Positions 3,852 to 32,000 of a DNA stretch of 32,000 nt are shown here, in pieces (the first letter of the stretch is position 1; every line of letters begins with the position of its first letter). Both the position numbers and the translations under genes were made by a program. A model generated the notes under the pieces. That model was not told the DNA's origin. It did no database searches and saw only the letters and a program-made list of their open reading frames with translations. This DNA is from Erysipelothrix inopinata (lineage in GTDB: Bacteria > Bacillota_I > Bacilli_A > Erysipelotrichales > Erysipelotrichaceae), in the NCBI RefSeq assembly GCF_014396165.1, contig NZ_CP060715.1:1980001-2012000 (forward strand), written 5' to 3'.

Positions 3852-3881
3852 CTATATATAACCTTTAATATCGTAAAGATA

Positions 3882-3912: not shown

Positions 3913-3927
3913 GAACTCACGATTAGT

Positions 3928-15496: not shown

Positions 15497-15961
15497 TTAT
15501 TCACTTGGCTGTGTTTCAAAACCACAATCAAGTTCTGCTTTAACAGTATAGTCTTTTTTACCAAATGGATCTTTTGGATAAATAACAGCACGGGTATTAT
15601 TGATATCACATGCTGTTTTTGTTTCTTGATTAATGAATGATTCTACGATCGTTGCATTCTTACCGTTGTCATAACGACTTAGGTTATCAAGATTGATTTT
15701 AATGCCACTTTCTGTAAAACGATTGAAGAAATCTTTAGCATCGGCTTCATCCATGTTTGCACTAACATTATCAAAGTAGAAGTTTTCATAAAAATCTGCT
15801 CCCATTTCTGTTAGTTTTGTTTCAAGAACTTTAGGTCCTTCTTTAGGTTTTAATTGAGTAAAAATTAAATAGCCAACAAGAATTACTAATACTACTCCCG
15901 TAGCAATAAGAATTCCCTTCGTTTTATTAAATCCTTTTTTCTTTTGTATTTCGTTTTCCAT
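15497..15961 (-). CDS. Small N-terminally anchored membrane protein, unknown function (last gene of the operon)
   Basis: 154 aa with a basic N-terminus, one TM helix (GILIATGVVLVILVGYLIF) and a ~115-aa extracytoplasmic domain with two Cys (KTACDINN, ELDCGF). GAGGG RBS 5 nt upstream. The start is 15 nt after the upstream stop. Confidence 0.6.
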   Translation of the reverse strand: MENEIQKKKGFNKTKGILIATGVVLVILVGYLIFTQLKPKEGPKVLETKLTEMGADFYENFYFDNVSANMDEADAKDFFNRFTESGIKINLDNLSRYDNGKNATIVESFINQETKTACDINNTRAVIYPKDPFGKKDYTVKAELDCGFETQPSE

Positions 15962-15976
15962 TTTTCCCTCTAATTT

Positions 15977-17656
15977 CTAGATCTTCTCATCGTGTTGGGA
16001 TTTTTCGTAGACAATCGTTTTTGGTTTTTTGCGAGTCATAATAAATACTACCGCAAGAATGAGTATCCAGATTGTACCGACACCTGCCCATAAGACACTA
16101 TGATCCAATTTAAATCCAGTTGATTCTGATTCACGAATAACTTCGATTACATAAGTATTCATAATACCATCGGCATTACTTGCATGAATCTTAATGTAGT
16201 TGATGCCTTCTCTTAGTGTATTGTTTGCAGCGATGTTGATATTGGTATTCGCATCTTTCGGTGCTGCAGTAACAGCAAGATGATTAACATCATGCTCCAC
16301 AATCATGTTATAAAAGAATACATCTTCTTTAAATCCTGGATTTAGTGCATACCCTCCAACAGAAATCGATGATAAGTAAGCACTACTTTCTGTTTCGCTA
16401 CGATTAACGTTAATTGTAATGTCACGTTTTTCGCCACTTGGAGAAGTCACAGTAATCGTAATTTGATTGGCACCAAATGTCAATGATTCGTGACCCGTAA
16501 TATTAACAGATGCATTTTGATCTTCAGGTGTTACTTTTAGATTTAAACGATCCGTATTTTTACCTACGTTGGCATGATACTCATTAACATCATGGCTTAA
16601 GTTAGGTTGTAGTGATATCCCTTCAATAGTACTGATGTAATTATTGACAGAGTTATTGTTGATGATTGTTGTATTTCCGTTTGAATCTTTACCTGTTTCA
16701 GACGTTGGTTTATCCGTATCTGGTTTGGGCTTTTCTTCTTTATCACCCGGAGTTGGTTTCTCTTCCGGCTTAGGATCGGGTTTTTCTTCAGGTTTTGGAT
16801 CTGGCTTTTCGCCACCAGGATTTTCTTCTTTATCCTTATCCTTCTTTGTTACCACAACTGTATATGTTTTTTGAGTCCCATCTTCTGCTTCAACGACAAT
16901 CTTAATAATGTTCTCACCTGGCTTAAGTTCATGACTTCCAGTTCCAGAAATAACTTTAGAGTGTTCATCTACTGGTAAAGCACTAATATCAATCGTATTG
17001 GTATTTTCACCAACCTCTAGTTTATAATCCAAAGTATTTTCATTGAATTTAGGATTTAACTCTAATTTAGTATCACCATCTTTAATGATTAGCTCTTTAA
17101 GTTGATTATTCGAAGATTCTTCTGGATTACTTTTATCTACAATATTAAGAACACTTTCCTTTGTAGATGCATCCAGTTCATTGAATTGTGTATCTGCAAC
17201 TGCAGCATTTTTAATTGCAATTTTTGTTGCGCCCGAAGGTGCACTCTCTAAGATTTCAACTTCAATCTCAAATGCTACTATATCTTCTTTTTGTGCAATA
17301 TTAGGTGGGTTATCATCATAACCAACAAACTTAATTTCTCCAGATGTTGGAGCGGTAGAAAACGCCCAACCTGATATTTTATTTTTTGCCTCTATAAATG
17401 TGAGGACACTGGGATCATACTGAAATGTTCCTGAGTACCCTTCAACACCATTTTTAAATGCCTGAACCTCTGATAGTTTAACTTGAAGATGGACACGTTC
17501 ACCGCGTGTCACATCTTTTTGTTCGGGTTCAATAATTAACTTAGGTGTGGTAGCAGAAAGAGGAATTACTAATTGCAAAACAAGCATTGATAAAATCATC
17601 AGTAAAACGACGATTCCACGAATCAAAGTTGTTTGATTTCTCATTGTTTTTTTCAT
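15977..17656 (-). CDS. Membrane-anchored cohesin protein (putative anchoring scaffoldin)
   Basis: 559 aa with signal peptide, cohesin, Cadherin-like module, Pro/Glu/Lys linker, two Cadherin-like modules, a C-terminal TM helix and a basic tail. GAGG RBS. The start is 13 nt after the upstream stop. Confidence 0.85.
   Translation of the reverse strand: MKKTMRNQTTLIRGIVVLLMILSMLVLQLVIPLSATTPKLIIEPEQKDVTRGERVHLQVKLSEVQAFKNGVEGYSGTFQYDPSVLTFIEAKNKISGWAFSTAPTSGEIKFVGYDDNPPNIAQKEDIVAFEIEVEILESAPSGATKIAIKNAAVADTQFNELDASTKESVLNIVDKSNPEESSNNQLKELIIKDGDTKLELNPKFNENTLDYKLEVGENTNTIDISALPVDEHSKVISGTGSHELKPGENIIKIVVEAEDGTQKTYTVVVTKKDKDKEENPGGEKPDPKPEEKPDPKPEEKPTPGDKEEKPKPDTDKPTSETGKDSNGNTTIINNNSVNNYISTIEGISLQPNLSHDVNEYHANVGKNTDRLNLKVTPEDQNASVNITGHESLTFGANQITITVTSPSGEKRDITINVNRSETESSAYLSSISVGGYALNPGFKEDVFFYNMIVEHDVNHLAVTAAPKDANTNINIAANNTLREGINYIKIHASNADGIMNTYVIEVIRESESTGFKLDHSVLWAGVGTIWILILAVVFIMTRKKPKTIVYEKSQHDEKI
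16034..16096 (-). other. C-terminal transmembrane anchor of the 559-aa protein
   Basis: VLWAGVGTIWILILAVVFIMT is followed by RKKPKTIVYEKSQHDEKI. No LPxTG, SLH or choline-binding motif is seen. Confidence 0.75.
16667..16846 (-). repeat. Pro/Glu/Lys/Asp-rich low-complexity linker with a tandem KPDPKPEE unit
   Basis: KKDKDKEENPGGEKPDPKPEEKPDPKPEEKPTPGDKEEKPKPDTDKPTSETGKDSNGNTT. The antisense reading produces the spurious GFSSG ORF at 16644-16874. Confidence 0.85.
17138..17545 (-). other. Cohesin domain of the 559-aa anchor protein
   Basis: KLIIEPEQKDVTRGERVHLQVKLSEVQAFKNGVEGYSGTFQYDPSVLTFIEA...GEIKFVGYD...DIVAFEIEVEILESAPSGATKIAIKNAAVAD matches the cohesin pattern (G..v.v.v.l......g..g....l.YD...L......g.i.f......g.l..i.F.v....G). 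Confidence 0.75.
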
Positions 17657-17669
17657 CTTTTGCCTCTAT

Positions 17670-20600
17670 CTATTTTTCAAATAGATTTTTACTTCCTAGA
17701 ATATGACTTCGTATTAAGATAAGGTCTGCAACCCCAACTTTTTTATCATGGTTAGTATCCGCTGCAACCTTCTGAGCATCATTTAGTGTTCCACCTAGTA
17801 TATAGGTTCTAAGATTTACGACGTCAGCAACCCCAATGCGACCATCTCCGTTTACATCACCTTTTACAATCAATGTTTTTTCATCATACTCAACACCTTC
17901 TACAATCAATTTAATGATTGCACCGGTTCCAACGAGTTCTTGGTCTTCAAGGACACGTCCTTCACGATATATTGCCAGTGTTTCATTCTCATTTAACATT
18001 TGATTCTTCACGTCAAGTACGGTTTGCTTCTCATGGATTGTCTCAATGTAGACATCACCAATAACATGAATTTCTGATTCAAGTTTTAGTTCTTTCACAT
18101 TGATTTCAACCGTATATTTTCTAGCTTCCATGTCTTCACGTGTTACGGTAATTGTAATTGTGTTTTTTCCAACCTTAAGTTCCGGTGCATCGATTGTTAC
18201 CTTAGCTTGCGGATCTTCTGGTATGGCATTAACATTTAATCTCAGTTTGTCTTTTTGGTGAACATCTGCTGTATAAGCTAAGACATCTTTCTTAAATGAA
18301 GGGTTTAACGCGATATCCTTCAAATCGAGATGTGCTAAGGCATTACTCTTAACATCACCACGATTAACAATGACATAATAGGTTGCTTCTTCATTACGGT
18401 TTCGGGTCACTTTAACAGGGAAAGTATTGCTACCCAGCTCAAGCTTATGACTGCCTGTCCCCGTAATTTTCGCATCCTGATTATTAGTCATCGCTGAAAT
18501 ATCAATGGATGAGATTGCTTCATCTACATTGACATAATAGGTTTTGATTTCTTTATCGAAGGATGGTGATAATTCCCCCTCACTAACTTTTAAAGAATCC
18601 AACCCAAAAGTATTACTGTGAGCACGGTTTACAAAGAGTGTATACACACGTTTTGATCCATCCTCTGCGATACTTTCAATTTCTAAAGTATTTCTTCCTG
18701 GTTGAAGTGCATGGATTCCAAGATTGGATACTTTTTGTTTAGCATCAATTGCTGTTGCAAAGACTTCGATTGTTTTCACATCAGCATCGACATCAATGTT
18801 GTAGGCTGTTTTATCAGCCGAGAACACAGGATCGAGATGACCTTTGTCAGTCCATAGATTTTGCAATCCTTTTTCTGATGAAGGTTTCTGATTAAATTGA
18901 ATCGTATAGATTCGAGGAATATTATTTTCACCTACAACTCTAACTTCATGGTTGTAAGGGAAGTCCGTAACGGTAATATTTCCGGTGCCACTAACCTTCA
19001 TCGATTCAGAAGCAGTGGCTTCAATCTCAAATGCATGGTCATCAACCACGTCTACAACGAAGACGTTTGTCTTAGGATTGAACTCCGGTGTTAGTTTATA
19101 GTTCCCATGGTTCTCACCTTCTACAGTTAATTTTTCTAAAACATTGTTTGATTGTGCCGTACGAGTTACATGAATACGATACGTATTTGTTTGATTTCGT
19201 TTGGTATTCACACTAACTTCCACAACATGATCACTTCCGACTGGGATGTTATTTTGATTCTTGATTTCAACAGTAGCATCATCGTTTGATTCGTAAATTG
19301 GTGTTATTGCATCCAATTCGTAAGGAATCGTGAGATAGTAGTCATTTTGAAGTGGATTGAATTTCGGATTTATATTTCCTTCTTTAACACTTAATTTCTG
19401 GAGTAGAACTGATTCATCCTGTTTTTCTTGTACTTCAATTTGGTATGTCCTTACTTGTTTGCTTTGTGAGGTAACATGAATCGTGACAACTTTCTTTTCA
19501 TCACTTTCTTTAGGATAGATAATTTCGACAGTTGCTTTTTCATGTTCTGAAATTGCGACAACATCAAGTTTTGTTTCTCGGTTTTCATACTGATATTCTT
19601 GAATCGTTTTCTCAAATCCTAAGAGTGCCTCATGATTAATATGAATTGATTTCAGATAGTTGTTGTCAGATGCTTCACGGTTAACTACGAACTCGTAGTT
19701 TTTCTCTTGACCATCTTTCGTTGTGACAGTCACGACATACGTTACTTTATCTTCTTCTATCTTAGGATCATTCACTTTAAACTTACTTTCTTTATCAGCA
19801 AGTTTCGCATCGATGAGCAATGTGTTCAAATTGGTATCACTTGGAACACTTACTTCATATTGCTGTGTTTCTTCATTCCAAGTTCCTGGCCATGAGTGTC
19901 CATCTTGTTTTACAGTAATAGAATCTATCGCCGTTTTATCTTTTTCTTTCACCACACGAACGGTGTACACAGACTGGTAGTTACCATTGGTTACAACCAT
20001 ATTTATATTCGTTGTATTTGGTAAAAGTGGTACGTTTTCAAAGGTACCTAGGATTTTAGCATTTGGATCTTCTGTTTTCGGATCAAAACTAATACTTAAA
20101 TCTTTTTCCAAGACTTTAAGTTCGTATTCTAGAGTACTACTATTGAAAGTTGGTGTTAGGTCCCCTTTATCAGGATTTAATGCAGATAAACGTGTCGACA
20201 ATCCTGCTTTAGCATGAATTGAGTAAGTTCTGATTTCACCGTTTTTGGCCTCTACTTTTACCTCAATCGTACGCGGTAAGGAAGAGACTTCGATATTTTC
20301 TAAAGCTTCTGGATTAAGAATACGAGCTTCGTATTTATCATCCAAGGTATAATAAACTCTAAAGTTTTCAACGCCTGGGAATAATGTAGCTTCATACTCC
20401 TGAATCTCTGGGTTAAACATTGGTGATAACATACCTTGGTTTTGTCCAATGTGTAGATCACTCAAATAGTTATACCCAACCTTACGTAATATAAGTTCAT
20501 AAGTTAGAGTTTCTTTTGACTCTGACTCCGTTTTTATACGGTAAATTGTATCGCCAGCATTTTTTATTATGGTAGCACTATCCATAAAGATATTAGTTTT

Positions 20601-23600
20601 CGTATGATTTGCTTCAGCAATAACATCACCCGAACCCCAAGTATCAATGTTTTGAGGTACTTCCACAACATAGGACATGACATCGGATTTAAATTCTGGT
20701 GTCAGTTTCAATTCTTTATTTTTTAAACTTAATGATTTTAAGGTTGCATCATGGGATGCTTCGCGACTCACTTCCAAGACATAGTTTACTTTAGCTTCGC
20801 CATCATAAGCTAAAGCCGTAAAATTAAATGTATTCTTGCCTGGTTTCAATTCCAAGTCTTTATTAACTTGTCCTTGCCATTTGACTGAACTGTCATTCGC
20901 AACTGCTTTAAGATTTTGAATGGTTGAATTAGCATCCAGGCTATCCTTAAGTTGGTATGTCATCGTATTTGTTTGAGCATCATATTTTCCAGATGCAACA
21001 TCAATATCTTGTGTTCCAAGTTTCAAGGATGTAAGTTCAATATCTTTATTCACAAGAATCTGATAAACCTGAGCCGGTGCGGAAGCATCTTCAGGTTGAA
21101 CACGAACCGTGAATACATTTTTACCCGGTCTTACTTTAAATGATTCCTGACCTTTAATGACATGAGCGAGTGCATCTTTTGGAGTCACGTCAATCATAAT
21201 TTCTTCCACATCACTAGGTACATGTTCAATTTCAAAGAGATCAAACGGTTCTTCATCAATACCATGGTTTAATGCTAATGGTTTGATGTTTCCATCTTTA
21301 TCTTTGTAGGTTATTTTCATATCTTGAAGACGTGCATCATCAGAGAGACTTCGTGTAAAGGTGAATTCATAAAGATTTGTTTTTGCTGTCTTTGAATCTG
21401 TCAATACGATTGTCTTCACTAAAGTTTGTTTCCCCGTCATATCGACTTTTTGAGATACTGATTCAATAATCTCAATGCCATCATCAAGGACGAGACCTAA
21501 ATCAAACTTTGGATTTTTATCTTTTAGGTAAGGATCCACATTTATTTCAAATGAAGATTCCCCTTTATATTCTGAAACATTTTTACCATTCAATGAAATA
21601 CCTTTTAATGTTGGAAGCACTTCTGCTTCTTTACGAACATCAATGTGGATGGTTGCGACATGTTCGTTACTTTGAGTGCTCAAATCAAATTTGAATTCAT
21701 TTTTCTCGGTATCACTTAGAGGTAAAGGATTCTTGTAGAATTTAGAAATTTGATATCCTTCTTCAAGTTTCGCATCACTTAAGTGTACATGTTTGTCTGT
21801 AAATTCTTTAAGATTACGCGGAACATATGCTACGTAGTAATAATGATTGGGTTCCGGATTTGAAATCTCCGTATCCTTATCGATAGAGATTACTGGATCT
21901 TTAATCTCAATATCTTTATCTTCATACTTCGTAAGTCGTTCTACATGTATTTCATAAACTTTTTTTGTTTTATTATCTTCTGCAGTAACTGTGATTTCTA
22001 TTTTGTTTTGTCCTGCTTTAAGATTTTGGTTGCCATTAATGGTAACTGTTGCATTTGCATCTAAAGTTTTTGCTTCAATGTTTAAAGATGACGTGTCAGA
22101 TGCAATGGGATCAAGTGTATATGACAACGTATCGCTAGAGAATCCAGGTACTGGTGTTCCCTCAACACTTAAGAGTGCGAGGTCTGCATTGGCACTTGAA
22201 TCTTTCATCACATTCAACGTATAAACACGTGTTGATCCTGTTTGTGAGGTAACTACAAAACTAATGGTATTCTTACCTTTTTTGACAGGAACACTCACCT
22301 TGTTTGTTGTAAGTAATTGACCATCAAAGCTTACGGTAGCATTCACATCTGTTTTTTCAATTTCAATTTCGACAACCTCAACATCATTACTTAGCGATGT
22401 TTCAGAAGTATAAATATTATTAACGAACTCTGATGTAATATCTTTCCCATCCAACTTAATGACAGAAAGCGTGTTTATTTCAGATGGTTTTTTCTCAATC
22501 TTAATCGTATATGTTTGCTTGGTTACTTTATTTTCTGCAACCACATCAATCTTAACTTCTTTTGACTGCGAGTCTAAAGTTACTTCCATTGGCATGGTTT
22601 GATTGATAGTTGCAAACTCGCTTGCACGACCACTCAAGATAACATCTTTCACATTACTATCTACGGTAAGAACGTATTCATAAGTATCAGGATTAAATGA
22701 TTTGTTAAAGTTACCTTGTGATGCTTTTAATTCTAGCAATTGAGCATTTGAATCATAAGCTCTCACAATCGTTAAAATGTATTTAGATTTAGGTTGCTTC
22801 ATATCTTCAGGTGATACGATAAATTGATATGTATTTTTCGACCCTGTTACAAGATCAAGGGGTTCATCAGCCTCAATACTTGCATTAGCTGGCAATGTAA
22901 ACGTTAAGTCATCAAGACTAAATGTCTTTTTAGAGTTTGGGACCTTAACGGTATAACGGTATACAAAGTCACCATCTTTATCTTTGTCACTATCTTTCGC
23001 AATGTCATCACCTTGTCCATTGGGATCTATAGGATTACCATCACCATCTTTTGGATCTGATTTAATATCATCTATCTGTGTTGGATCTTTGGGTTTAAAA
23101 GGATTGGTACCATTACCCTCTCCATCCGTTAGCTCTGAACTACTATTTCCCTTCATCGTAACAGTCAGAATATAAGTTTGTTTCTTACCACTTTCCGATA
23201 CGATTTGAATTGGAAAATCATGGTTCCCACTCGTTAGTGTTTGTTCTGTTAGCACGGAATCATTTTCTATTTTCGCGCCACTTTTCGGGTCAACACTTGC
23301 ATTGATTTTAATTTTTGTATTTTCCTTAAATTCAATCTCTCCTAAATCATAATTCAAGGTTTCAGGATTAAACGCAATGTTAATTGGTTTTCCGTCCAAA
23401 GTAACCGATAACTCTTGTAAGGTAGCATCATCATTTTGTTTACGTTTTAACGTAATACGATATGTATCCTTGGTGCCATCTTCTGCTCGAGTTTCGATTT
23501 CAACGATGTTATTTCCCTCAATCAAATTCAATTCTGATTCAAAAGTATTGTTGCTTTGAAGATTGGTTAAATCTTTCTTATTTAATGTTACACGATGAAC

Positions 23601-25031
23601 ACGTGCTTCATCGTATTGCATTTGCATCAAGATGTGAGAAAGTTTCGTATCACGATCAATTTCTACATCATAGTTACGTTCGTCTTTCTTCAAGTCTACA
23701 AGCGTATCGCCAACTTTGAGTTGTTTAAGGCTTGTGTCCTTTGATCCACGAACAAATGTCATTTTATAAAGGGCTTCCTTTACAATTGAAGGATCATCAT
23801 TTCCAAATAGTGTTTCATATTTTTTTAATCCTGATTCACTTTTTACAGTAACATCCAAATCTGTATTTGCAGTGGGATTTAATGTCAGTTTAGAACCTTC
23901 AATGACACCATTTGACACATAACTAATTTCATTGGTTGGTGCTGTAGCAAACAATTCAAGACTATCAACACTTCCCTGTGTTTTCACAATACCGTTTGCT
24001 GGTGGATTTGCACTTGAGTAAACAACGAACTTATCGTTTTCTCCTTCATATTGAGCAATTAAATCCAACGATGTTTTCACATCCAAACGTTTTACATTAA
24101 AGCGATAGATACCAAGTGTTTCACCTTGGTACGCATAAATACCTAAGAAAGTATTATCACCGACTTCTAAGGATCGGTCTGTACTACTTCCTTTTTCTTT
24201 TCCAAATTTGAAACTGGCATTGTCATCTGGGTGACTCAATACGATATCTTCTTTAATTTTCGTAACCGTGTGAGGGACTACAATTTCCGGATACTCAAGT
24301 ATTTTCTCATCAAACTGGGACCCAAGGTAGTCATGACCATCGGCACTGTTACCAAGTACATCCGCTTTAAGTGACACACCGTTTAGCGTTGGAGCAGGTT
24401 GTCCTGCTTCTTTTGCAACGTTGAGCTTAAAGGAAGTATCCGCTTCGATAGGTGTTACTTTAGTATTCGACATGTTATCGGCAACAACTAACTTGTTGTA
24501 TCTAAACTTAATTTCTTTGCCTGGTGTTGCATCGGCTTTAACACGGAAATACATGACCATCATTGGACCTGATGCACTCAAAGCATATTCTGGCTTCGCA
24601 ACAGTTTGTCCCGTGTAGATAATTAAATCATCAACAATATTGTGGTTAATCGTCCATACATGTACGCGATCTCGACCTTTTTTAACAGTCGGAAACACAC
24701 CACCCTCATCATCTTTAGGATAAATTAAATCTTGATCATCCACTTCTACAACTTCAAGAAGTGTCTTATCATAATAGATTTCATATTGAAACATCGAGAT
24801 ATTATGCGTTCCGTTGGATTCAAAATCAACATCCAATCGGAACACATCTCCCGGTTTCACCACAGACCCCGAAGCAAGCTTCGGAGAGTCTGCGATATCT
24901 TCATACGTATATTCAGATTCGTCATAAGCTTTAAAACGAACGATATTATTCGTAGCAGCAAAGACATCATAATTTGGAATAGTTGTGACAAGAATTGCGA
25001 CAAGCATTAATGTTATTAATTTATTTTTCAT
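17670..25031 (-). CDS. Giant secreted cohesin-(Cadherin-like)n-X-dockerin protein, 2453 aa
   Basis: Signal peptide (MKNKLITLMLVAILVTTIPNYDVFA|A), N-terminal cohesin, about 20 canonical plus 2 atypical ~90-aa Cadherin-like beta-sandwich modules, an X-module and a C-terminal dockerin. The start overlaps the upstream gene's stop by 11 nt. Confidence 0.9.
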   Translation of the reverse strand: MKNKLITLMLVAILVTTIPNYDVFAATNNIVRFKAYDESEYTYEDIADSPKLASGSVVKPGDVFRLDVDFESNGTHNISMFQYEIYYDKTLLEVVEVDDQDLIYPKDDEGGVFPTVKKGRDRVHVWTINHNIVDDLIIYTGQTVAKPEYALSASGPMMVMYFRVKADATPGKEIKFRYNKLVVADNMSNTKVTPIEADTSFKLNVAKEAGQPAPTLNGVSLKADVLGNSADGHDYLGSQFDEKILEYPEIVVPHTVTKIKEDIVLSHPDDNASFKFGKEKGSSTDRSLEVGDNTFLGIYAYQGETLGIYRFNVKRLDVKTSLDLIAQYEGENDKFVVYSSANPPANGIVKTQGSVDSLELFATAPTNEISYVSNGVIEGSKLTLNPTANTDLDVTVKSESGLKKYETLFGNDDPSIVKEALYKMTFVRGSKDTSLKQLKVGDTLVDLKKDERNYDVEIDRDTKLSHILMQMQYDEARVHRVTLNKKDLTNLQSNNTFESELNLIEGNNIVEIETRAEDGTKDTYRITLKRKQNDDATLQELSVTLDGKPINIAFNPETLNYDLGEIEFKENTKIKINASVDPKSGAKIENDSVLTEQTLTSGNHDFPIQIVSESGKKQTYILTVTMKGNSSSELTDGEGNGTNPFKPKDPTQIDDIKSDPKDGDGNPIDPNGQGDDIAKDSDKDKDGDFVYRYTVKVPNSKKTFSLDDLTFTLPANASIEADEPLDLVTGSKNTYQFIVSPEDMKQPKSKYILTIVRAYDSNAQLLELKASQGNFNKSFNPDTYEYVLTVDSNVKDVILSGRASEFATINQTMPMEVTLDSQSKEVKIDVVAENKVTKQTYTIKIEKKPSEINTLSVIKLDGKDITSEFVNNIYTSETSLSNDVEVVEIEIEKTDVNATVSFDGQLLTTNKVSVPVKKGKNTISFVVTSQTGSTRVYTLNVMKDSSANADLALLSVEGTPVPGFSSDTLSYTLDPIASDTSSLNIEAKTLDANATVTINGNQNLKAGQNKIEITVTAEDNKTKKVYEIHVERLTKYEDKDIEIKDPVISIDKDTEISNPEPNHYYYVAYVPRNLKEFTDKHVHLSDAKLEEGYQISKFYKNPLPLSDTEKNEFKFDLSTQSNEHVATIHIDVRKEAEVLPTLKGISLNGKNVSEYKGESSFEINVDPYLKDKNPKFDLGLVLDDGIEIIESVSQKVDMTGKQTLVKTIVLTDSKTAKTNLYEFTFTRSLSDDARLQDMKITYKDKDGNIKPLALNHGIDEEPFDLFEIEHVPSDVEEIMIDVTPKDALAHVIKGQESFKVRPGKNVFTVRVQPEDASAPAQVYQILVNKDIELTSLKLGTQDIDVASGKYDAQTNTMTYQLKDSLDANSTIQNLKAVANDSSVKWQGQVNKDLELKPGKNTFNFTALAYDGEAKVNYVLEVSREASHDATLKSLSLKNKELKLTPEFKSDVMSYVVEVPQNIDTWGSGDVIAEANHTKTNIFMDSATIIKNAGDTIYRIKTESESKETLTYELILRKVGYNYLSDLHIGQNQGMLSPMFNPEIQEYEATLFPGVENFRVYYTLDDKYEARILNPEALENIEVSSLPRTIEVKVEAKNGEIRTYSIHAKAGLSTRLSALNPDKGDLTPTFNSSTLEYELKVLEKDLSISFDPKTEDPNAKILGTFENVPLLPNTTNINMVVTNGNYQSVYTVRVVKEKDKTAIDSITVKQDGHSWPGTWNEETQQYEVSVPSDTNLNTLLIDAKLADKESKFKVNDPKIEEDKVTYVVTVTTKDGQEKNYEFVVNREASDNNYLKSIHINHEALLGFEKTIQEYQYENRETKLDVVAISEHEKATVEIIYPKESDEKKVVTIHVTSQSKQVRTYQIEVQEKQDESVLLQKLSVKEGNINPKFNPLQNDYYLTIPYELDAITPIYESNDDATVEIKNQNNIPVGSDHVVEVSVNTKRNQTNTYRIHVTRTAQSNNVLEKLTVEGENHGNYKLTPEFNPKTNVFVVDVVDDHAFEIEATASESMKVSGTGNITVTDFPYNHEVRVVGENNIPRIYTIQFNQKPSSEKGLQNLWTDKGHLDPVFSADKTAYNIDVDADVKTIEVFATAIDAKQKVSNLGIHALQPGRNTLEIESIAEDGSKRVYTLFVNRAHSNTFGLDSLKVSEGELSPSFDKEIKTYYVNVDEAISSIDISAMTNNQDAKITGTGSHKLELGSNTFPVKVTRNRNEEATYYVIVNRGDVKSNALAHLDLKDIALNPSFKKDVLAYTADVHQKDKLRLNVNAIPEDPQAKVTIDAPELKVGKNTITITVTREDMEARKYTVEINVKELKLESEIHVIGDVYIETIHEKQTVLDVKNQMLNENETLAIYREGRVLEDQELVGTGAIIKLIVEGVEYDEKTLIVKGDVNGDGRIGVADVVNLRTYILGGTLNDAQKVAADTNHDKKVGVADLILIRSHILGSKNLFEK
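17673..17861 (-). other. Dockerin domain (two F-hand Ca-binding segments) of the 2453-aa protein
   Basis: GDVNGDGRIGVADVVNLRTYILGG...AADTNHDKKVGVADLILIRSHILG. Both loops fit D-x-N-x-D-x-x-x-x-x-x-D and each is followed by a helix. Confidence 0.85.
17862..18089 (-). other. X-module-like domain directly preceding the dockerin
   Basis: LKLESEIHVIGDVYIETIHEKQTVLDVKNQML...LVGTGAIIKLIVEGVEYDEKTLIVK. It shares the pattern VGT(G/S)..IKLIV..V.YDE..I.IKGD.NGDG with the upstream protein. Confidence 0.5.
18090..24395 (-). repeat. Array of about 22 diverged Cadherin-like beta-sandwich modules (protein-level repeats)
   Basis: The recurring frame is L..L.V..G.L.P.F......Y...V.......I.A......A.V...G...L..G.N...I.VTAEDG....Y.I.V.R. 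An example is LDSLKVSEGELSPSFDKEIKTYYVNVDEAISSIDISAMTNNQDAKITGTGSHKLELGSNTFPVKVTRNRNEEATYYVIVNR. Confidence 0.8.
22968..23135 (-). other. Asp/Gly/Pro/Lys-rich insert (possible Ca-binding or hinge segment)
   Basis: ELTDGEGNGTNPFKPKDPTQIDDIKSDPKDGDGNPIDPNGQGDDIAKDSDKDKDGD (residues 633-688 by my count). Confidence 0.6.
24417..24956 (-). other. N-terminal cohesin domain of the 2453-aa protein
   Basis: ...SVVKPGDVFRLDVDFESNGTHNISMFQYEIYYDKTLLEVVEV...GPMMVMYFRVKADATPGKEIKFRYNKLVVAD.... It has the cohesin core motifs and a ~40-aa insertion relative to the anchor-protein cohesin. Confidence 0.7.
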
Positions 25032-28000
25032 GTGTTGCTCCTATTCCATTCAATGAATCAAGGACTTTCAAGATAAAGTTCAAGATAAATCCTTGATCCA
25101 AGACGTCAACTTCAGTATCTTCGTTAACATCTGCAGCAATCTTTTCAATCGGTGTCATCGTGTAAGTTTGGGTAATGGCGTTAGAACTTAATCCTTCGTC
25201 CAAGACGTCAACTTCACCATCACCGTTGAGATCACCTTTTATTGCTATTTGTAACTCATCGTAAGTCACATCATTAACGATAAGTTTAATACGCATCGAA
25301 GTTCCGACATATCGGGAATTATCTTCGATAGTTTGCGATTCTTTATCAAATATAAAGAGACTTGTTTCTTCATTGATAAAGTATGACTTGTATGTTGCGA
25401 TATCGGTTTGTGGTTCGCCACCGACAACATAATCACCAACATCTTCATGAGCCAATCCATCATCCAATCGTTTAATATCTAATGTTTCGCTGGTTAGTGT
25501 AAGGTTCATAACCGTAACACCAATCTGTGCTTTAACATTTGGATTTTGAACACTTGAGACAGTAACCATTGCACCACCTGGTTTTATAGCTTTAAGGTTA
25601 CCGGCGGCATCAACTGTCACAACATCTGGATTACTGCTTGACCACGTAATTTCTTTGTTGGTTGCATTTTCTGGTTCAATACGAACCGCTAATTGTTTCA
25701 CTTCATCCACACTCATCAAGATATTTGATTGTTCAAGATGCAATGCATGTATTTCTCGATTTCGTGTTATGTGAATTGTGATGGTTTCTTGAGTCTTATG
25801 GTCCTCAGAACTTACAGTAATGATTCGCTTATTCTCACCATATTGAAGATCTTCCATAGTATGCCCTGATATCAGTGCATTCTTACTATCTGTCAGTACT
25901 TCAAATTCAATTTCACTTACACGATCTTCGACTTCCATCGTATACTCTTTGATACTTTGATCAAACTTAGGCGTTAGGGTGCCTGCACTTGGAATGATAT
26001 CCAGGATTTTAGCACTTGTTGCACTTGGTCTCATAATTTCAAACGTGTAGATATTTGTTTTCCCTGATTCACTCGTTACTTCAATTTGATGTGTATTTTT
26101 TCCAGGTTGGATTGCGACAACACCATCTCCCTTAACCTGACTTCCATCAGGAATGGTTACCTTGAATTCAACGTTTTCTTGACCTTCAATCGTATTGACA
26201 ATGTAAGGACCAAGATCACTTGGATCAAATGTTTTCTCAAGGGTACCACCAATAACTTCAAGACTTTCAAGAGAATGATTATCATTAGGTAAACGTGTGA
26301 TTCTAACAATATAACTTCGTTCAACATTTTCAAACGATGTTACGACAATACGATGTTCATTCACGCCTACTTTAAGATCACGAACCGTTCCTGTTCCACG
26401 AATTTGTGATTTCGCATCTTCAGGTGTTGCGATTACATCAATATCTGTAACCTCATAAGGCACTTCAATCTCGTAGTTATTGTGATATTTATCAAAACTT
26501 GGAGAGACATGACCTTGATTTGTTATCAAGTCTTTGAGGTAGTTACTACTAAAGATTTGACGTGTAACGGTAAATTCATAGATTGTATCAGGAATATCGT
26601 GCTTACTGTGAACCACAACTTGAACAGTATTCGTTCCAACTTTCAAGTTTTTATTTCCTTTAATTTCGTAGGTAGCATTAATTGGATCTTCAAGTATGAT
26701 TTCATCCACCGTTAGATCGGTTACTTCATACGGCACTGATAATGTGTAGGCTTCAATATCTTTATCAAAGCGTGGATTTTCAATCATTGCTTCTTTAAAT
26801 CGTATTGATGTTGCTTTTGAACTTTGTACCGAGTCACGAGTGACATCTACGTCATAGACAGCAATTTCTCCGAATCGGCTGGTTACCACAACATCAAACT
26901 CATTCAGTCCAATTTCAAGATCATGCACACCATCACCCGTAATGAGTGCTGTTTCGTCCATAGCTCTCGCAGCAATTTCGACACGCTCTTGTTCATGCGG
27001 TACAGCAGCTGTATAAGCTGAACGAAGTGGCGTAAACTGTGGCTCTAACTTTCCAGGATGAATCATAAGATGTGCCAACATCGCACTGGCCGATGTATCC
27101 TTTTGAATCTTGACGACATAAGTCATCGTGGCATCATTTTTACCGGTTACCACAATTGGCACGGTTTTACTTTGAATTCCTTCCAGATCAATGATTCCTG
27201 CTCCCTCAATTGATTTCACAGCCGACTCATCTTCCGGTTTTGCAGTCAACAAGACTCGTTTAACATCAGCAGGTAATTTCAAGGTATAAGGACCACCATT
27301 CGTTTTATCAAATGGTTCAACAAAGATTCCCGTATTACTTGTAAGAGATTCTAAGTAAATACTTTGTTGTGAAGAGTGATAGACATTCACAATGTATGTC
27401 TCCGAGTTTTTACCATTCGCAGATTGAGTCACAATTTTTACGCGATTGTTGTCATCTTTCATCGGTTCATCGATACCATTTCCAGATACAGTCCACGTTG
27501 TTTGTTTCGAAGACGCTTTAATTTCTGGTGTTAGGTACTCTACCCCTTTAGGTACATAGAGTGCATACTCTTTACGCGTTTTCATAAAGAGTGGCGATAA
27601 GGAACCTTCTTTAAACCTTAAGTCTTGAAGACTAGCATCACCAGAGAGTGCTTGGTTAATAATCACTTCATAGATTCTTAAGACACCATCTTTACTCTGG
27701 ACTACAATTTTGAAACTATTACGTCCTGGTTTGACTTCAAAGGTTCCCACTCCTGAAAGGATGGTCGCATCGCTACTTTCCTTGACAGCATCGATCGTAA
27801 CCTCTGTCGTTTCCATATCAACATTCACAACATAACGATTGGTGTTAGGTTTGAAGGTTGGGGACATTGTTTTACTTGGTGTAACCGTCAAGGAACTCAA
27901 TCGGTTACTAAAGAGTGACGCATCTTGTTTCACAATTTTCAGTGTATAGTCACGTGTTTCTTTATTTTCAGCCTCAACACGAATTTCAACTTTATTTGTT

Positions 28001-31000
28001 CCTCTGTTTAGATTCTTAATAATATAGTTTCCATCGCCATCCTTTTCAGCATCGTGGCTAATAATTTTTACGGTTGCTTTAGGATCCTCTGGTTTAAGGG
28101 TTAGTGTTACAGATTGATGTTCATCTGAGATGAATGTTTCATAATCATGATGATCTTTCACGAATGTTGGTGATACCAATCCTTCACTAATTTCTAATAT
28201 TTCTAAGTAGTTATTAAAGGAAGCGGATCGCACAACTTTTACATTGTAAACCGATTGTGATCCATCCGGTGAAGAGACTGTCAATGGTATGTGGTTATCA
28301 CCAATTTCAAGTGACTTCCAACCGCCGCCACTGACTTGAGCAATCGGTCTATTTAAGGCGATTCCTTCAACCATCACTCTCTCAACATCCTGAGGTACCC
28401 AAACGACATATTCTAAGGTATCCATCTTAAAGACAGGATCCAATGTACCATGACTTAATTTAATCGATTGAAGTCGGTTGTCATACTCACGCACAATAAC
28501 GAGTGGGTATTCTTTAGTATCACCATTTTGTGCTTCAACTGAAATCATGAACTTGTTTTCGCCATAATCTAGGGCATAGTCACCGTTACCTTTAATCTTA
28601 GCAAGGGCATCATGTGCCTTCGCTTCAATGCGAACCATGTCTGTCGCAGAATTAACGTTATATCTGAATGCTTCTTCTGTTTCTAAATCAAATGATTTTG
28701 TGATATCATCATGCATTACTTTGAGACTGTCTAAACCATTTTCACCAGAGAGTTTCTTGTTTACCTCAACAAAGTATGTTTTTGTCTTCGTTCTGTCCTC
28801 ACTGGTTACGCTAATAGTTACATGGTTCTTACCATTTAATAACGGCTCATTACCACGAATCATGACCCGTGCATTGGGTGATGTCGGTGTGGCTTTAAAT
28901 TCAACACCTTGGGCATTCTCATCAAGATTTAACGTGTAGTAGAGACGATCTTGGCTAAAGTCACCTTCTTCAAATTGAAGATCTTTTAGACCTTCTTCTT
29001 GAATTGAGAATGGAATTAATCCTGCCAAGGTCGCATCACTCGACATGGAGCGAACGATATTGACGTTATAGATTGATACATTTCCTTCTTCAGGTTCTGT
29101 CGATAAGAGTGTTACTGGATTGTTTCCAGATTTCAGTTTAACTTCAACACCATTTTCAACTTTATTGGCTGTAGCATTGCCTGCAACACCTTGAACAAGT
29201 GTTGTATTAACTTGCGGTGTTCCTTCTACCAATACGATATCAGTATTGCCACCTACTTCAACAGAGTAGTCTTTCAACGAACGTTTAAAGCGTGGTGAGA
29301 AGTTTTCACCTTGGCTGATAACTTTACCGTTCTCACTCACAGTAATACCTTGAAGGTAGCTGTTGTGACGCGGTTCTTTAAGAACATGAAGAATCGTATC
29401 TTGAGTTCGACCATTTTCAGCACGAACGCGAACAATGACATCGTTGTTACCTTCGCTGAGATGTTCATTATTAATGATCTCTACTTGAGCTTTCGGATCT
29501 TGAGCAACAGCCTTAATATCAAGAGCTTGTGTATCTGTTTCAATTTCAACATGATACTCGTATTTACCTTCTTCAAATTCAAAAGGTTTTCGTGTATTAA
29601 GAATTTCTAAAGATTTAAGGCTGGTATCATCATTCCCATTACGATGAATGGTGATCATACGATCTTTTGTTAAACCGAAAGGTGTTACAGTCTCAATTCG
29701 GAAATCATTGTTTCCGTATTTAAGACTTAACTTACTTATATCTTGAGGGTTGTTGTACTTATCATAAACATTAATTGTTTGTGATGGATGGCCTTTCGTA
29801 ACTATAATACCGACACGATCGACTTCACGGGCAACACTGGTACGATATTGTGTCAATTGATTGTTGTAGGTAGGATCAACGCCTGCATTCTGTGCATCCG
29901 TAACTTCAATATTTTTTAAATCTAGAGTATTGGATAAGTTGCGTTTTAGAATGAGAACGTATTCGCGGATATCGCCACTCTCTGACTGAACTTGGATTGC
30001 GACTCGTGTCGAATCACCCAGTAGTTCTTTATCTCCAAGTGTAGAGAGTATCTTGGCTTTTGGATCTTGAGTAAACGCGCGAATTACAACTGATTTTGTA
30101 TCTTCAAGAAGCCCAACTTCATATTCAGTTACATTCGGATCGAAAGGTTGTTTGAAGATACTTCCCTCTATTTGAATTCCCGAGAGTGCGTTATTCTTAG
30201 AACGTTTATACGTTACATTGAATGTGTACGAGGTCTTCGATTTACCATTCTCACTGTGAACTGTAATGACGAATGGTTTTAACACATTCGCTTCTAATGT
30301 TATGGGTTCTTCTGTTTCGTAAATAATTGTTGCGTTAGGATCAGTAGCTGCAATTTTCTTGATGAATGACTTATCAAATGTTTGGTTATCATCCGTCAAC
30401 TCTAACGTGTAGTCAGTAACGTTAGGATTAAAGTTCTTATCGAGTGTTCCCGATTCAAATTCGATATTTTTTAGTTTCGAGTTATCACCGACTTCACGTT
30501 CCACTATAATACGGTACGTTTGCATCGTATAACCGTCTACTGCTCGAACTCTTATTTCATATATATTTTCTTGCGCAGTTTTCAATTCTAGGACGCCTGT
30601 TTTCTCAACAGTTGCATGCTTATCAACAAGATCAAAAATCACTTCATCACTCTTCAAGTTTGTTTTTGAGTTTGGAACTTTCAAGTGATACGTGAAGACA
30701 TCCTCTTGGAATGGTTCCTGAAGTTTATACCCTTTAACACTGAGATTTGATAGACGCGTTTCGTCAGTCTTAGCACGCCCAATGTTGATTGTATATTCTT
30801 TTACATCACCATTTTCAGCCGTTACTTTAATCACACGTACGCTTTCCCCTGTTGGGAGTAATTTTCGTTCATGTCCCGTAATTCTCGCATTACGATCTTC
30901 GGTGCTGACATCAAATGATAATGTATTGGTAACACTTTCCGTATTGAGTTGATACGTATCTTCCGTATAAATGAAGTTTGGTGTCAGAGCACCATTGCTT

Positions 31001-32000
31001 GGCTTGATGTTTGTAAGAGCATTATTATCTGAAGCAGGACGTGTGAGGTTGATGGTGTAAACACGATCTCGACCCGAATCACTGGTTACCACGACTTCAA
31101 GTTTGTTGTCTCCTACTTTAATTTTTTTCTGGCCACTACCAGATATTGTTGTGGCAAGACTCTTGACTCCTATATCGACACTCTCAGTTCCGATTGGAAC
31201 TGGATTCACAAGTGTATACTCTTGAATTTTAGGATCAAAGGCGGGTTTCATTTGAAGCACATCCCCTTTTAATTTGACACTTAAATCCTGCAAGTAATTC
31301 TCATGAGATCGACTTCTGTTTACAAACACATGGTAAGTTCTCGTGATACCTGTTTTTGAAGTAACGGGAATTTTAATATGTGTTTCCCCATAAGGAATAT
31401 CATAATTACCCAGTCCCTCAACTTTAGATGAAGTTAATGTTGCTTCTCCATCAAGTTTCAAGGTACTTTCTTCAGGTGTTAAATCTACGTTATAAACAAG
31501 TGTTCCCTTGTAAAAGCTTGGTGTCAACTTATTCTTATTCACAGCCAGATACTCTAAATAGTTATTTGCGTAAATTTGACGATAAGCATGAATCGTATAG
31601 GTTTCTTGGAGATCTTTCTCGTTAGAAGTAACCTCGATAGTTATCGTGTTATCCCCTACTTCAAGATTTTGATTTCCAGTAACTTTATAGGTAGCATTGG
31701 GATCTATTTTTTCAATTTCCATTTGTAATGTCGTAACTTCATTATCAACATTGATAAAGTACTCGTTGACATCTGAGCTAAATCCTTCATCAAATGGATA
31801 GTTATCAACTTTTAAGTTTTTGAGTTTTGCAGAATTAATCGGTGCACGATTCACAATAAATGTGAACGTTTTAACCGTTCCATTTTCTGCTGTAACGTTG
31901 ATATTGAATTGATTGCGGCCCACCTTAAGTTCATGAGTACCAATTCCTGTGAGGGTAGCATTTTTATCTTCTAAGATTCCATCAAATTGAATGGTTTCAT
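25021..32000 (-). CDS. Giant (Cadherin-like)n-Big_2-X-dockerin protein, at least 2326 aa (N-terminus outside the window)
   Basis: The track ORF starts at an internal Met (31923), but the frame stays open to 32000 (...ETIQFDGILEDKNATLTGIGTHELKVGRNQFNINVTAENG...) and is mid-module there. I count 22 complete modules plus one cut by the edge, then Big_2, an X-module and a dockerin. Confidence 0.9.
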   Translation of the reverse strand, partial: ETIQFDGILEDKNATLTGIGTHELKVGRNQFNINVTAENGTVKTFTFIVNRAPINSAKLKNLKVDNYPFDEGFSSDVNEYFINVDNEVTTLQMEIEKIDPNATYKVTGNQNLEVGDNTITIEVTSNEKDLQETYTIHAYRQIYANNYLEYLAVNKNKLTPSFYKGTLVYNVDLTPEESTLKLDGEATLTSSKVEGLGNYDIPYGETHIKIPVTSKTGITRTYHVFVNRSRSHENYLQDLSVKLKGDVLQMKPAFDPKIQEYTLVNPVPIGTESVDIGVKSLATTISGSGQKKIKVGDNKLEVVVTSDSGRDRVYTINLTRPASDNNALTNIKPSNGALTPNFIYTEDTYQLNTESVTNTLSFDVSTEDRNARITGHERKLLPTGESVRVIKVTAENGDVKEYTINIGRAKTDETRLSNLSVKGYKLQEPFQEDVFTYHLKVPNSKTNLKSDEVIFDLVDKHATVEKTGVLELKTAQENIYEIRVRAVDGYTMQTYRIIVEREVGDNSKLKNIEFESGTLDKNFNPNVTDYTLELTDDNQTFDKSFIKKIAATDPNATIIYETEEPITLEANVLKPFVITVHSENGKSKTSYTFNVTYKRSKNNALSGIQIEGSIFKQPFDPNVTEYEVGLLEDTKSVVIRAFTQDPKAKILSTLGDKELLGDSTRVAIQVQSESGDIREYVLILKRNLSNTLDLKNIEVTDAQNAGVDPTYNNQLTQYRTSVAREVDRVGIIVTKGHPSQTINVYDKYNNPQDISKLSLKYGNNDFRIETVTPFGLTKDRMITIHRNGNDDTSLKSLEILNTRKPFEFEEGKYEYHVEIETDTQALDIKAVAQDPKAQVEIINNEHLSEGNNDVIVRVRAENGRTQDTILHVLKEPRHNSYLQGITVSENGKVISQGENFSPRFKRSLKDYSVEVGGNTDIVLVEGTPQVNTTLVQGVAGNATANKVENGVEVKLKSGNNPVTLLSTEPEEGNVSIYNVNIVRSMSSDATLAGLIPFSIQEEGLKDLQFEEGDFSQDRLYYTLNLDENAQGVEFKATPTSPNARVMIRGNEPLLNGKNHVTISVTSEDRTKTKTYFVEVNKKLSGENGLDSLKVMHDDITKSFDLETEEAFRYNVNSATDMVRIEAKAHDALAKIKGNGDYALDYGENKFMISVEAQNGDTKEYPLVIVREYDNRLQSIKLSHGTLDPVFKMDTLEYVVWVPQDVERVMVEGIALNRPIAQVSGGGWKSLEIGDNHIPLTVSSPDGSQSVYNVKVVRSASFNNYLEILEISEGLVSPTFVKDHHDYETFISDEHQSVTLTLKPEDPKATVKIISHDAEKDGDGNYIIKNLNRGTNKVEIRVEAENKETRDYTLKIVKQDASLFSNRLSSLTVTPSKTMSPTFKPNTNRYVVNVDMETTEVTIDAVKESSDATILSGVGTFEVKPGRNSFKIVVQSKDGVLRIYEVIINQALSGDASLQDLRFKEGSLSPLFMKTRKEYALYVPKGVEYLTPEIKASSKQTTWTVSGNGIDEPMKDDNNRVKIVTQSANGKNSETYIVNVYHSSQQSIYLESLTSNTGIFVEPFDKTNGGPYTLKLPADVKRVLLTAKPEDESAVKSIEGAGIIDLEGIQSKTVPIVVTGKNDATMTYVVKIQKDTSASAMLAHLMIHPGKLEPQFTPLRSAYTAAVPHEQERVEIAARAMDETALITGDGVHDLEIGLNEFDVVVTSRFGEIAVYDVDVTRDSVQSSKATSIRFKEAMIENPRFDKDIEAYTLSVPYEVTDLTVDEIILEDPINATYEIKGNKNLKVGTNTVQVVVHSKHDIPDTIYEFTVTRQIFSSNYLKDLITNQGHVSPSFDKYHNNYEIEVPYEVTDIDVIATPEDAKSQIRGTGTVRDLKVGVNEHRIVVTSFENVERSYIVRITRLPNDNHSLESLEVIGGTLEKTFDPSDLGPYIVNTIEGQENVEFKVTIPDGSQVKGDGVVAIQPGKNTHQIEVTSESGKTNIYTFEIMRPSATSAKILDIIPSAGTLTPKFDQSIKEYTMEVEDRVSEIEFEVLTDSKNALISGHTMEDLQYGENKRIITVSSEDHKTQETITIHITRNREIHALHLEQSNILMSVDEVKQLAVRIEPENATNKEITWSSSNPDVVTVDAAGNLKAIKPGGAMVTVSSVQNPNVKAQIGVTVMNLTLTSETLDIKRLDDGLAHEDVGDYVVGGEPQTDIATYKSYFINEETSLFIFDKESQTIEDNSRYVGTSMRIKLIVNDVTYDELQIAIKGDLNGDGEVDVLDEGLSSNAITQTYTMTPIEKIAADVNEDTEVDVLDQGFILNFILKVLDSLNGIGATHEK
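25024..25236 (-). other. Dockerin domain of the upstream giant protein
   Basis: GDLNGDGEVDVLDEGLSSNAITQTYTMTPIEKIAADVNEDTEVDVLDQGFILNFILKV contains two D-x-N-x-D-x-x-x-x-x-x-D loops. Confidence 0.8.
25237..25503 (-). other. X-module-like domain preceding the dockerin
   Basis: LTLTSETLDIKRLDDGLAHEDVGDYVVGGEPQTDIATYKSYF...YVGTSMRIKLIVNDVTYDELQIAIK is related by eye to 17862-18089. Confidence 0.5.
25504..25743 (-). other. Bacterial Ig-like group 2 (Big_2) domain
   Basis: LHLEQSNILMSVDEVKQLAVRIEPENATNKEITWSSSNPDVVTVDAAGNLKAIKPGGAMVTVSSVQNPNVKAQIGVTV shows the canonical Big_2 pattern (L.v.v.P.nat.k.v.W.SSn..vatVd..G.v.a...G.a.itv). Confidence 0.8.
25744..32000 (-). repeat. Array of at least 22 diverged Cadherin-like beta-sandwich modules
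   Basis: Same motif frame as 18090-24395. Examples: LQSIKLSHGTLDPVFKMDTLEYVVWVPQDVERVMVEGIALNRPIAQVSGGGWKSLEIGDNHIPLTVSSPDGSQSVYNVKVVR and LKDLITNQGHVSPSFDKYHNNYEIEV.... Confidence 0.8.

Follow-up and report, generated by a model that had tools for sequence, protein, structure and literature searches.

A four-gene cassette of Erysipelothrix inopinata that may encode a segmented, enzyme-free cohesin-dockerin surface fibre

What could cohesins and dockerins assemble at a locus that encodes no enzyme for them to carry? The question is raised by a 32,000-nucleotide (nt) stretch of Erysipelothrix inopinata (assembly GCF_014396165.1, contig NZ_CP060715.1, positions 1,980,001 to 2,012,000; hereafter the window, whose own numbering is used below). 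A cassette of four genes lies on the minus strand of the window, as do all the cassette features described here, in the order B (25021 to beyond 32000), A (17670-25031), C (15977-17656) and D (15497-15961). It contains exactly two cohesins, one each in A and C, and two dockerins, in A and B. We propose that these genes constitute a cassette for a non-enzymatic surface fibre made of three separately secreted proteins, which two orthogonal, Ca-dependent cohesin-dockerin pairs would join end to end. Comparative genomics lends further weight to this plausible interpretation; to the complete ordered model, including a C-A-B chain, distal heads and D as an accessory, we give slightly better than an even chance.

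Two cohesins and two dockerins in a compact cassette

The four co-directional genes are closely packed: according to the coordinates of the open reading frames, B and A overlap by 11 nt, and gaps of 13 and 15 nt separate A from C and C from D. Shine-Dalgarno motifs precede the starts of A (AGGAG), C (GAGG) and D (GAGGG). An earlier description made from the letters alone (the sequence-only reading) had reported the same packing, with a ribosome-binding site for each gene, and it had also counted two cohesins and two dockerins in the window; the packing holds, with such sites seen at the starts of A, C and D, and so does the count, on family-model scores above the Pfam cut-offs (24.1 bits for cohesin PF00963 and 22.9 bits for dockerin PF00404) and on profile matches to solved structures. 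The reading frame of B is uninterrupted up to the window edge, so that the window part (25021..32000) comprises the C-terminal 2,325 codons and the 5' end lies past it.

Both dockerins are C-terminal and score well with Dockerin_1. The one in B (25078..25239; GDLNGDGEVDVLDEG... / DVNEDTEVDVLDQGFILNFILK) reaches 33.3 bits over residues 2254-2307 of the window fragment, and the one in A (17700..17864; GDVNGDGRIGVADVVNLRTYILG / DTNHDKKVGVADLILIRSHILG) 32.3 bits over residues 2390-2444. Two segments are visible in each, and a profile of these dockerins (alignment A3) matches solved dockerins with E-values down to 9e-15, its matches including 2jnk from Clostridium perfringens and Amy16, Amy12 and Amy10 of Ruminococcus bromii. 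By reading of the sequence, the positions D1, N3, D5 and D12 (D-x-N-x-D...D12) are kept in all four Ca-loops, namely DVNGDGRIGVAD and DTNHDKKVGVAD in A and DLNGDGEVDVLD and DVNEDTEVDVLD in B. The two dockerins are of distinct types, with the consensus GDVNGDGRIGVAD..R.YILG / ..VGVADLI.IRSHILG for the A-type and GD.NGDG.V[DN]VLDEG.. / ..V[DN]VLDQG[FY]I.N[FY]ILK for the B-type. Their recognition positions differ (helix motif VA...R[TS] in A, VL...[SL]N in B), and each type is tied to its position in the cassette and kept in the orthologues of E. anatis and of the more distant genome GCA_964410635.1 (L007).

The cohesins are harder to see. The C-type cohesin (residues 49-165 of C; 17162..17512) yields 35.2 bits (E = 1.7e-8) with PF00963 when residues 35-184 are scanned alone, but hmmscan of full-length C returns no cohesin, even at E <= 1. 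The full-length scan is a false negative that would also have misled routine annotation and the HMM check proposed with the sequence-only reading. The NCBI entry for an E. inopinata protein with 100% identity to C bears no annotation other than "cadherin-like beta sandwich domain-containing protein". In a comparison of a C-cohesin profile (A1) with solved structures, the 26 best matches were all cohesins, headed by 1g1k (4.7e-11) and including C. perfringens NagJ, so the cohesin that the sequence-only reading had placed in C stands although Pfam misses it on the entire protein. The A-type cohesin (residues 56-190 of A; 24462..24866) is divergent, with insertions, and scores 28.1 bits; its orthologues score 25.6, 22.2 and 28.7 bits with the same model, and a profile of four orthologues (A5) gave eight matches in the PDB, all eight of them cohesins (best E = 3.7e-4). 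No similarity between the A and C cohesins was detected by BLASTP.

A module of ~75 amino acids (aa) that precedes both dockerins is also conserved (alignment A3). In A (17868..18095) it is 39-61% identical across four lineages, and its counterpart in B occupies 25246..25506. Since it has no Pfam family and no sequence match to solved X-modules, "X-module" can serve only as a label for it and we call it X-like. An AlphaFold2 (AF2) model of the A pre-dockerin module together with its dockerin, built on a 3-sequence alignment, had a pLDDT of 30.7.

Neither the four genes nor the 15 kb of flank on the sequenced side gave a Pfam match to a glycoside hydrolase, carbohydrate esterase, polysaccharide lyase, carbohydrate-binding module (CBM) or any further catalytic domain, in agreement with the enzyme-free composition first described, and an NCBIfam scan found nothing except one dockerin-only match. 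A, C and the window part of B, 5,337 residues in all, are free of cysteine, and D has exactly two.

A membrane anchor, an adaptor and a giant distal subunit

Gene C (15977..17656) encodes 559 aa, with a signal peptide, the cohesin, one Cadherin-like module, a Pro/Glu/Lys-rich (PEK) linker, two further Cadherin-like modules, a transmembrane (TM) helix and a short basic tail. An iterated hidden Markov model (HMM) recovers the three Cadherin-like modules (Pfam E = 4.7e-28) and a hydropathy scan places the TM helix at residues 519-542 (16031..16102), followed by the tail RKKPKTIVYEKSQHDEKI, so that the architecture first drawn for C is borne out in each of its parts. Neither an LPXTG-like motif near the C-terminus nor an SLH match was found in A, B or C by motif scan and Pfam. 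The three proteins are thus predicted not to be anchored by sortase or SLH domains, C carrying a TM helix and basic tail instead. Proteins with a signal peptide, a cohesin, a variable number of Cadherin-like modules and a TM helix are widespread, a similar one occurring in the gut bacterium Roseburia hominis, and this type of anchor is a generic one. The PEK linker (16667..16843) contains a 24-nt tandem repeat at 16754-16810. Its counterpart in E. anatis is a (GNNGGNT)n spacer of strain-variable length (in proteins of 771, 811 and 823 aa), and at another related locus (L017) a G/S/N/T-rich repeat; the length of the spacer appears to evolve fast.

Gene A (17670..25031) encodes 2,453 aa, with a signal peptide, the cohesin, ~23 modules, the pre-dockerin module and the dockerin. 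The Cadherin-like array (18102..24326; Pfam E = 2.6e-87) was resolved into 19 modules by the iterated HMM plus two more by Pfam in residues 200-446, close to the count of about 22 given at first sight, and the signal peptide, cohesin and dockerin of that description were likewise found. Residues 1030-1254 (~220 aa) matched no family with either method. The module array is broken at residues ~625-690 (window ~22962-23159) by an Asp/Gly/Pro/Lys-rich segment (DPKDGDGNPIDPNGQGDDIAKDSDKDKDGD) without a Pfam match, a possible hinge that is similar to Ca-binding loops. Orthologues of A measure 2,453 aa in near-identical strains (L001-L004), 2,442 aa in E. anatis, 3,180 aa in L007 and 2,334 aa in L017, and the A dockerin is 75% identical to that of E. 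anatis.

The window part of B consists of an array of 23 Cadherin-like beta-sandwich modules, the first partial (25768..31998; iterated HMM, period ~90 aa; Pfam PF12733, E = 1.9e-126), a Big_2 domain (PF02368, 44.2 bits; fragment residues 2092-2153, 25540..25725), the pre-dockerin module and the dockerin, as the sequence-only reading had it with at least 22 modules. The modules of A and B share a mean pairwise identity of 23% and DNA tandem repeats are absent, which rules out recent repeat amplification in these two genes; the modules are old copies.

Beyond the window edge, relatives supply what the fragment lacks. A homology search with the N-terminus of the window fragment retrieved only unrelated Cadherin-like proteins and no full-length B. 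Orthologues of B in strains that are 93-99% identical are 3,767-5,501 aa long, those of the 93-95% identical relatives measuring about 5,000-5,500 aa, and carry PF12810, the ALK/LTK glycine-rich domain. In a contig of a 95% identical metagenome-assembled genome (MAG), B starts with a signal peptide (MNIKKVSRAGGLGLLFFVVFLSSFQIFA) followed by five ALK_LTK_GRD domains (196, 135.5, 136, 135 and 135 bits), each of which is succeeded by 2 or 3 Cadherin-like modules, with the uninterrupted array afterwards. The first residue of the window fragment aligns with residue 3,178 of this relative, so the B protein of E. inopinata would be ~5,500 aa long. B had at first been taken for a stalk alone, a view that the N-terminus of these relatives overturns.

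Read together, the three proteins have a consistent polarity. Signal peptides are N-terminal. The connector proximal to the cell, a TM helix for C and a dockerin for A and for B, lies at the C-terminus throughout, and the distal element lies at the N-terminus, as a cohesin for C and A and as the glycine-rich domains for B (in the 95% identical relative). This polarity is the strongest internal argument for the proposed assembly.

Gene D encodes a conserved membrane protein family

Gene D (15497..15961) encodes a bitopic membrane protein of 154 aa, with a TM helix at residues 14-38 by hydropathy scan and an ectodomain of ~100 aa; its AF2 model is confident (pLDDT 87). Its two cysteines are invariant in 34 aligned homologues, and the homologue alignment (A2) also shows the conserved motifs DFYENFYY and GIKINLDNLSRY. 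With clustering at 50% identity, a profile search retrieved 748 clusters, of which 541 had E <= 1e-10, and no Pfam domain was found in the family among 93 homologue clusters. Foldseek gave no significant match of the model to PDB folds. The type IV pilin family was considered and rejected: the best match, the monoderm type IV pilin 8pfb_C, reached only E = 0.5, a probability of 0.05 and a TM-score of 0.15, and a conserved prepilin cleavage motif is absent from A2.

All three of the unrelated D-family contexts inspected lie near giant Cadherin-like proteins, two of which have a called dockerin. In the first (L013-16), D is followed by a 3,100-aa protein with glycine-rich, Cadherin-like, Big_2 and dockerin domains and then by an A-like protein; in the second (L017-19), an A-like protein (cohesin of 28.7 bits plus dockerin) is followed by a C-like anchor and D; in the third (L020), D is close to a 5,855-aa protein with glycine-rich, Cadherin-like and Big_2 domains. 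The family size and these neighbourhoods speak against the first impression of D as an incidental small TM protein, and point to D as a conserved and widespread signature component of the cassette. At L020, a BclA_C (exosporium-type) protein and a small membrane protein separate the D-like gene from the giant (3380-4381, 291-2120 region), and a 609-aa K/N-rich membrane protein precedes the set. The latter has no cohesin, which rules it out as a C-like anchor.

Conservation of the cassette

The order B-A-C-D recurs in three lineages, comprising E. inopinata strains and MAGs, E. anatis (4,627, 2,442, 771 and 161 aa, respectively) and the more distant L007 (3,809, 3,180, 636 and 144 aa). Partial sets occur as well, A-C-D at L017 and a D-B-A-like set at L013-16, and relatives of the cassette parts are present in Firmicute metagenome contigs. 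Altogether, B adjoins A in four lineages and A adjoins C in four lineages. A further variant (L011) encodes a 980-aa Peptidase_C1 protein ending in the same pre-dockerin module and dockerin, immediately upstream of the gene for an anchor with signal peptide, cohesin, Cadherin-like modules and TM helix; this pair is a two-gene analogue of the cassette in which the cargo is an enzyme. The adjacency of B to A and of A to C in four lineages each, together with that of cargo and anchor in L011, argues for B/A and A/C as functional neighbours.

With its five distal glycine-rich domains, ~80 modules and conserved fourth component, the cassette is more elaborate than it had first appeared, and it is more widespread as well.

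A proposed fibre and its alternatives

In the model that we favour, C would sit in the membrane through its C-terminal TM helix and hold its N-terminal cohesin outward on three modules and the PEK-rich spacer. The C-terminal dockerin of A would insert into this cohesin, A extending by ~23 modules to present its own, distinct N-terminal cohesin, into which the C-terminal dockerin of B would insert in turn, B adding ~45-50 more modules. The five ALK/LTK-type glycine-rich domains in the distal third of B would be the likely ligand-binding heads. D may be an obligatory accessory with a disulfide-bonded ectodomain, perhaps a co-anchor or an assembly factor at the membrane. Such a fibre would likely serve long-range adhesion or spacing, for attachment to a host, a particle or a cell.

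The pairing of the B dockerin with the A cohesin and of the A dockerin with the C cohesin is suggested by polarity and gene order. Membrane-C-A-B-heads is the preferred layout because it is the only one in which two orthogonal pairs would use each module once and leave all the proteins attached to the cell, and it corresponds to the conserved gene order in reverse. The sequence-only reading had noted that gene order mirrors a distal-to-proximal chain; coherent polarity and conserved order strengthen this. Serial anchoring itself is established in adaptor and anchoring scaffoldins. Its estimate of ~45 modules end to end was too low: with the fuller length of B taken from relatives, the chain would have ~80 modules, and at ~4 nm each, an assumption taken from Ig-like folds, the fibre would approach 0.3 micrometre. 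Binding between the modules, surface exposure, fibre length and adhesive function are all predictions of the model.

Several observations weigh against this model. Gene order and polarity are what the pairing is drawn from, and the A cohesin, at 28.1 bits, is barely over the Pfam cut-off of 24.1. The N-terminus of B comes from the contig of the 95% identical MAG, not from E. inopinata. The recorded length of B ranges between 3,767 and 5,501 aa (3,767, 5,038 and 5,501 aa in the near-identical L001-L004, and a split gene in one MAG), partly perhaps as an artefact of assembly; strains may truly differ in the number of modules, or repeats may have collapsed in the assemblies. L017 has A-C-D without an adjoining B, and since B is not adjacent there, its A cohesin may have another partner or bind A's own dockerin. 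Module identities relative to E. inopinata (A dockerin and C cohesin both nearer L017 than L007, A cohesin reversed) give a faint hint in favour of the proposed pairing, but this co-variation comes from four taxa and is not significant. Other dockerin proteins, enzymes included, might compete for the cohesins from elsewhere in the genome, and the roles of the glycine-rich domains as heads and of D are putative.

The alternative that survives best, although we regard it as unlikely, is a different wiring of the same parts: the A dockerin would bind the A cohesin, A would polymerise head to tail indefinitely, and B and/or A would dock to C, or else the dockerins would be promiscuous. That A holds both a cohesin and a dockerin fits this scheme, as do the internally symmetrical segments of both dockerins and the L017 locus, in which C- and D-like genes follow an A-like one and no B-like gene is adjacent. 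However, the lineages have kept two clearly distinct types of dockerin and two of cohesin, as orthogonal pairs predict, adjacency is consistently that of B with A and of A with C, and an A that bound itself could not reach the anchor without a second specificity.

Somewhat less probable again is enzyme display of the cellulosome or amylosome kind, in which the cohesins of A and C would mainly recruit dockerin-bearing hydrolases encoded elsewhere, with A and B serving as long scaffolds or as stalks that bind substrate. The L011 locus, where a homologous anchor is paired with a dockerin-bearing papain-like protease, offers a precedent, our search covered the cassette plus 15 kb of flank, and Cadherin-like domains may bind carbohydrate, to judge from the Pfam entry for PF12733. 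Yet the cassette and the 15 kb next to it on the sequenced side contain no carbohydrate-active enzyme, CBM or protease, the single cohesin of each scaffold has exactly one dockerin to match it among the cassette proteins, and the enzyme-free composition is conserved in three lineages. Moreover, Erysipelothrix is, to our knowledge, not known as a fibre degrader. The idea that the modules do not interact at all, A and B being independently secreted or loosely wall-associated giants, their dockerins Ca-binding or stabilising elements only and C unrelated to them, could appeal to the high divergence of the A cohesin and to the many non-cellulosomal cohesins and dockerins for which no partner has been demonstrated (PMC9012536, citing Peer et al. 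2009), but it is improbable given the intact Ca-loop residues of all four dockerin segments, the strict conservation of the 2:2 arrangement in one cassette and the fact that the dockerins are the only anchoring device (no LPXTG, SLH or other) on A and B.

Relation to known systems

The proposed C-A-B fibre has its closest parallel in the chains of adaptor and anchoring scaffoldins of cellulosomes, such as CipA of C. thermocellum, whose X-module-dockerin binds the type II cohesins of SdbA and OlpB, ScaA-ScaB-ScaC of A. cellulolyticus and ScaA-ScaB-ScaE of R. flavefaciens. It would share with these their serial and polar assembly, each C-terminal (X-)dockerin inserting into the next cohesin and the last protein being fixed to the cell, as well as distinct cohesin-dockerin specificities at each level, and their solved modules are the best sequence matches to those described here. 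In contrast with them, the cassette has a single cohesin per protein and neither a multivalent scaffoldin nor enzymes or CBM; its spacers are 20-50 Cadherin-like modules instead of short linkers; its anchor is a C-terminal TM helix, not an SLH domain or sortase signal; its terminal subunit has glycine-rich domains; and its pre-dockerin module is without similarity to solved X-modules. With no dockerin-bearing enzymes and no multi-cohesin scaffoldin in the cassette and its 15-kb flank, it lies outside the cellulosome/amylosome class.

A second parallel is with giant single-chain adhesins, among them Gram-positive stalks of the Ebh and SasG type and the RTX adhesins SiiE, LapA and MpIBP. In these, too, tens of tandem Ig-like or cadherin-like modules project binding domains over hundreds of nanometres, the ligand-binding region lying at the end opposite the anchor. 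They are single chains, held covalently by sortase, through a type I secretion system or at the outer membrane, whereas the stalk of the cassette would be divided among three gene products, joined non-covalently and anchored by a TM helix.

Among uses of cohesins and dockerins other than on plant fibre, the NagJ cohesin and the NagH (mu-toxin) dockerin of C. perfringens (PDB 2OZN, 2JH2 and 2JNK) resemble the cassette in coming from a Firmicute and in having single modules per protein. They join secreted glycoside hydrolases, whereas the cassette has no catalytic domain and carries a membrane anchor and giant stalks. The amylosome of R. bromii is likewise a cohesin-dockerin system of a gut Firmicute outside cellulose degradation, and it includes proteins that combine a cohesin with a dockerin (PMC4611034); unlike the amylosome, with its GH13 amylases and starch-binding scaffoldins, the cassette contains no enzyme. 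In Cellulosilyticum lentocellum, the adjoining genes of ClcC and ClcD encode a single cohesin and a single dockerin whose complex has been shown experimentally, so minimal adjacent pairs can function (PMC13487519). ClcC/ClcD enhance cellulase activity, in contrast with the giant stalks, second docking level and TM anchor of the cassette. Non-cellulosomal cohesins and dockerins have for many years been catalogued in numerous genomes, mostly without an assigned partner or role (Peer et al. 2009, cited in PMC9012536), and for Omnitrophota it has been suggested that giant proteins with dockerin repeats serve in attachment (bioRxiv 10.1101/2023.11.21.568195).

In full-text literature, from whose coverage most subscription papers are absent, we found no fibre of Cadherin-like modules, cohesins and dockerins and nothing similar in Erysipelothrix. 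This agrees with the initial claim that an enzyme-free fibre of this kind had not been described; novelty of the assembly principle does not follow, as the cassette would extend a logic already known from scaffoldins. That it represents an undescribed and widespread appendage of Firmicutes, a segmented giant adhesin with orthogonal monovalent pairs, a TM cohesin base, D as signature and glycine-rich heads, is a tentative proposal whose chances we put a little short of even.

With two cohesins, two dockerins, no enzymes and one anchor in a cultivable organism, the cassette is a closed test case for non-cellulosomal pairs. If the model is correct, these long-catalogued modules would gain a structural function, and very long adhesins could be built by non-covalent assembly outside the cell, sparing it the secretion of a single chain of ~8,000 residues. 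The bacterial ALK-type glycine-rich domains would become candidate binding heads and D would define a new conserved family of membrane proteins. For protein engineering, the cassette would offer two orthogonal, naturally co-evolved cohesin-dockerin pairs and natural modular fibres of defined length (~0.3 micrometre). The presence of relatives of the parts in Firmicute metagenomes, and of an anchor with cohesin, Cadherin-like modules and TM helix in R. hominis, suggests that such fibres may be relevant to colonisation.

Genomic context and flanking genes

A terminator-like hairpin followed by a U-run lies 3' of D on the minus strand (15361-15396), with a folding energy of -15.1 kcal/mol (z = -3.9 relative to shuffled sequences); a terminator had been noted at this place, and the folding energy and U-run support it, while a consensus terminator scanner did not list the hairpin. 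The remaining genes of the window, whose G+C content is ~36%, are housekeeping ones: a suf Fe-S cluster operon, a MerR regulator, two PrsA-like lipoproteins, a HIT protein and pnp, the last on the minus strand downstream of D (12749-14914). In the contig of the 95% identical MAG, rpsO is found directly upstream of B (L005 493-759). As rpsO and pnp are classically adjacent genes and here flank the cassette on either side, the interval that holds the cassette (and, in some strains, RHS genes) looks like a hotspot for the insertion of accessory genes.

In the near-identical strains L001-L004, a gene for a 167-aa protein and genes for DUF6531-RHS toxins of 2,000-3,000 aa stand directly downstream of D; they are absent from the window, where pnp comes next. 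A 150-bp remnant at 15141-15290 (minus strand; translation ...THDYDGLGNRT*) is 84% identical to the inside of a giant RHS/YD-repeat toxin gene, its counterpart being L001 19679-19828 in a 99% related strain, which suggests that the RHS region of the window was deleted, leaving a stub. Finally, the two PrsA-like lipoprotein genes adjoin each other on the plus strand (10381-12215), ~3 kb from the cassette, to which they may be unrelated; a PPIC rotamase domain is present only in the first, and the second has no Pfam match.

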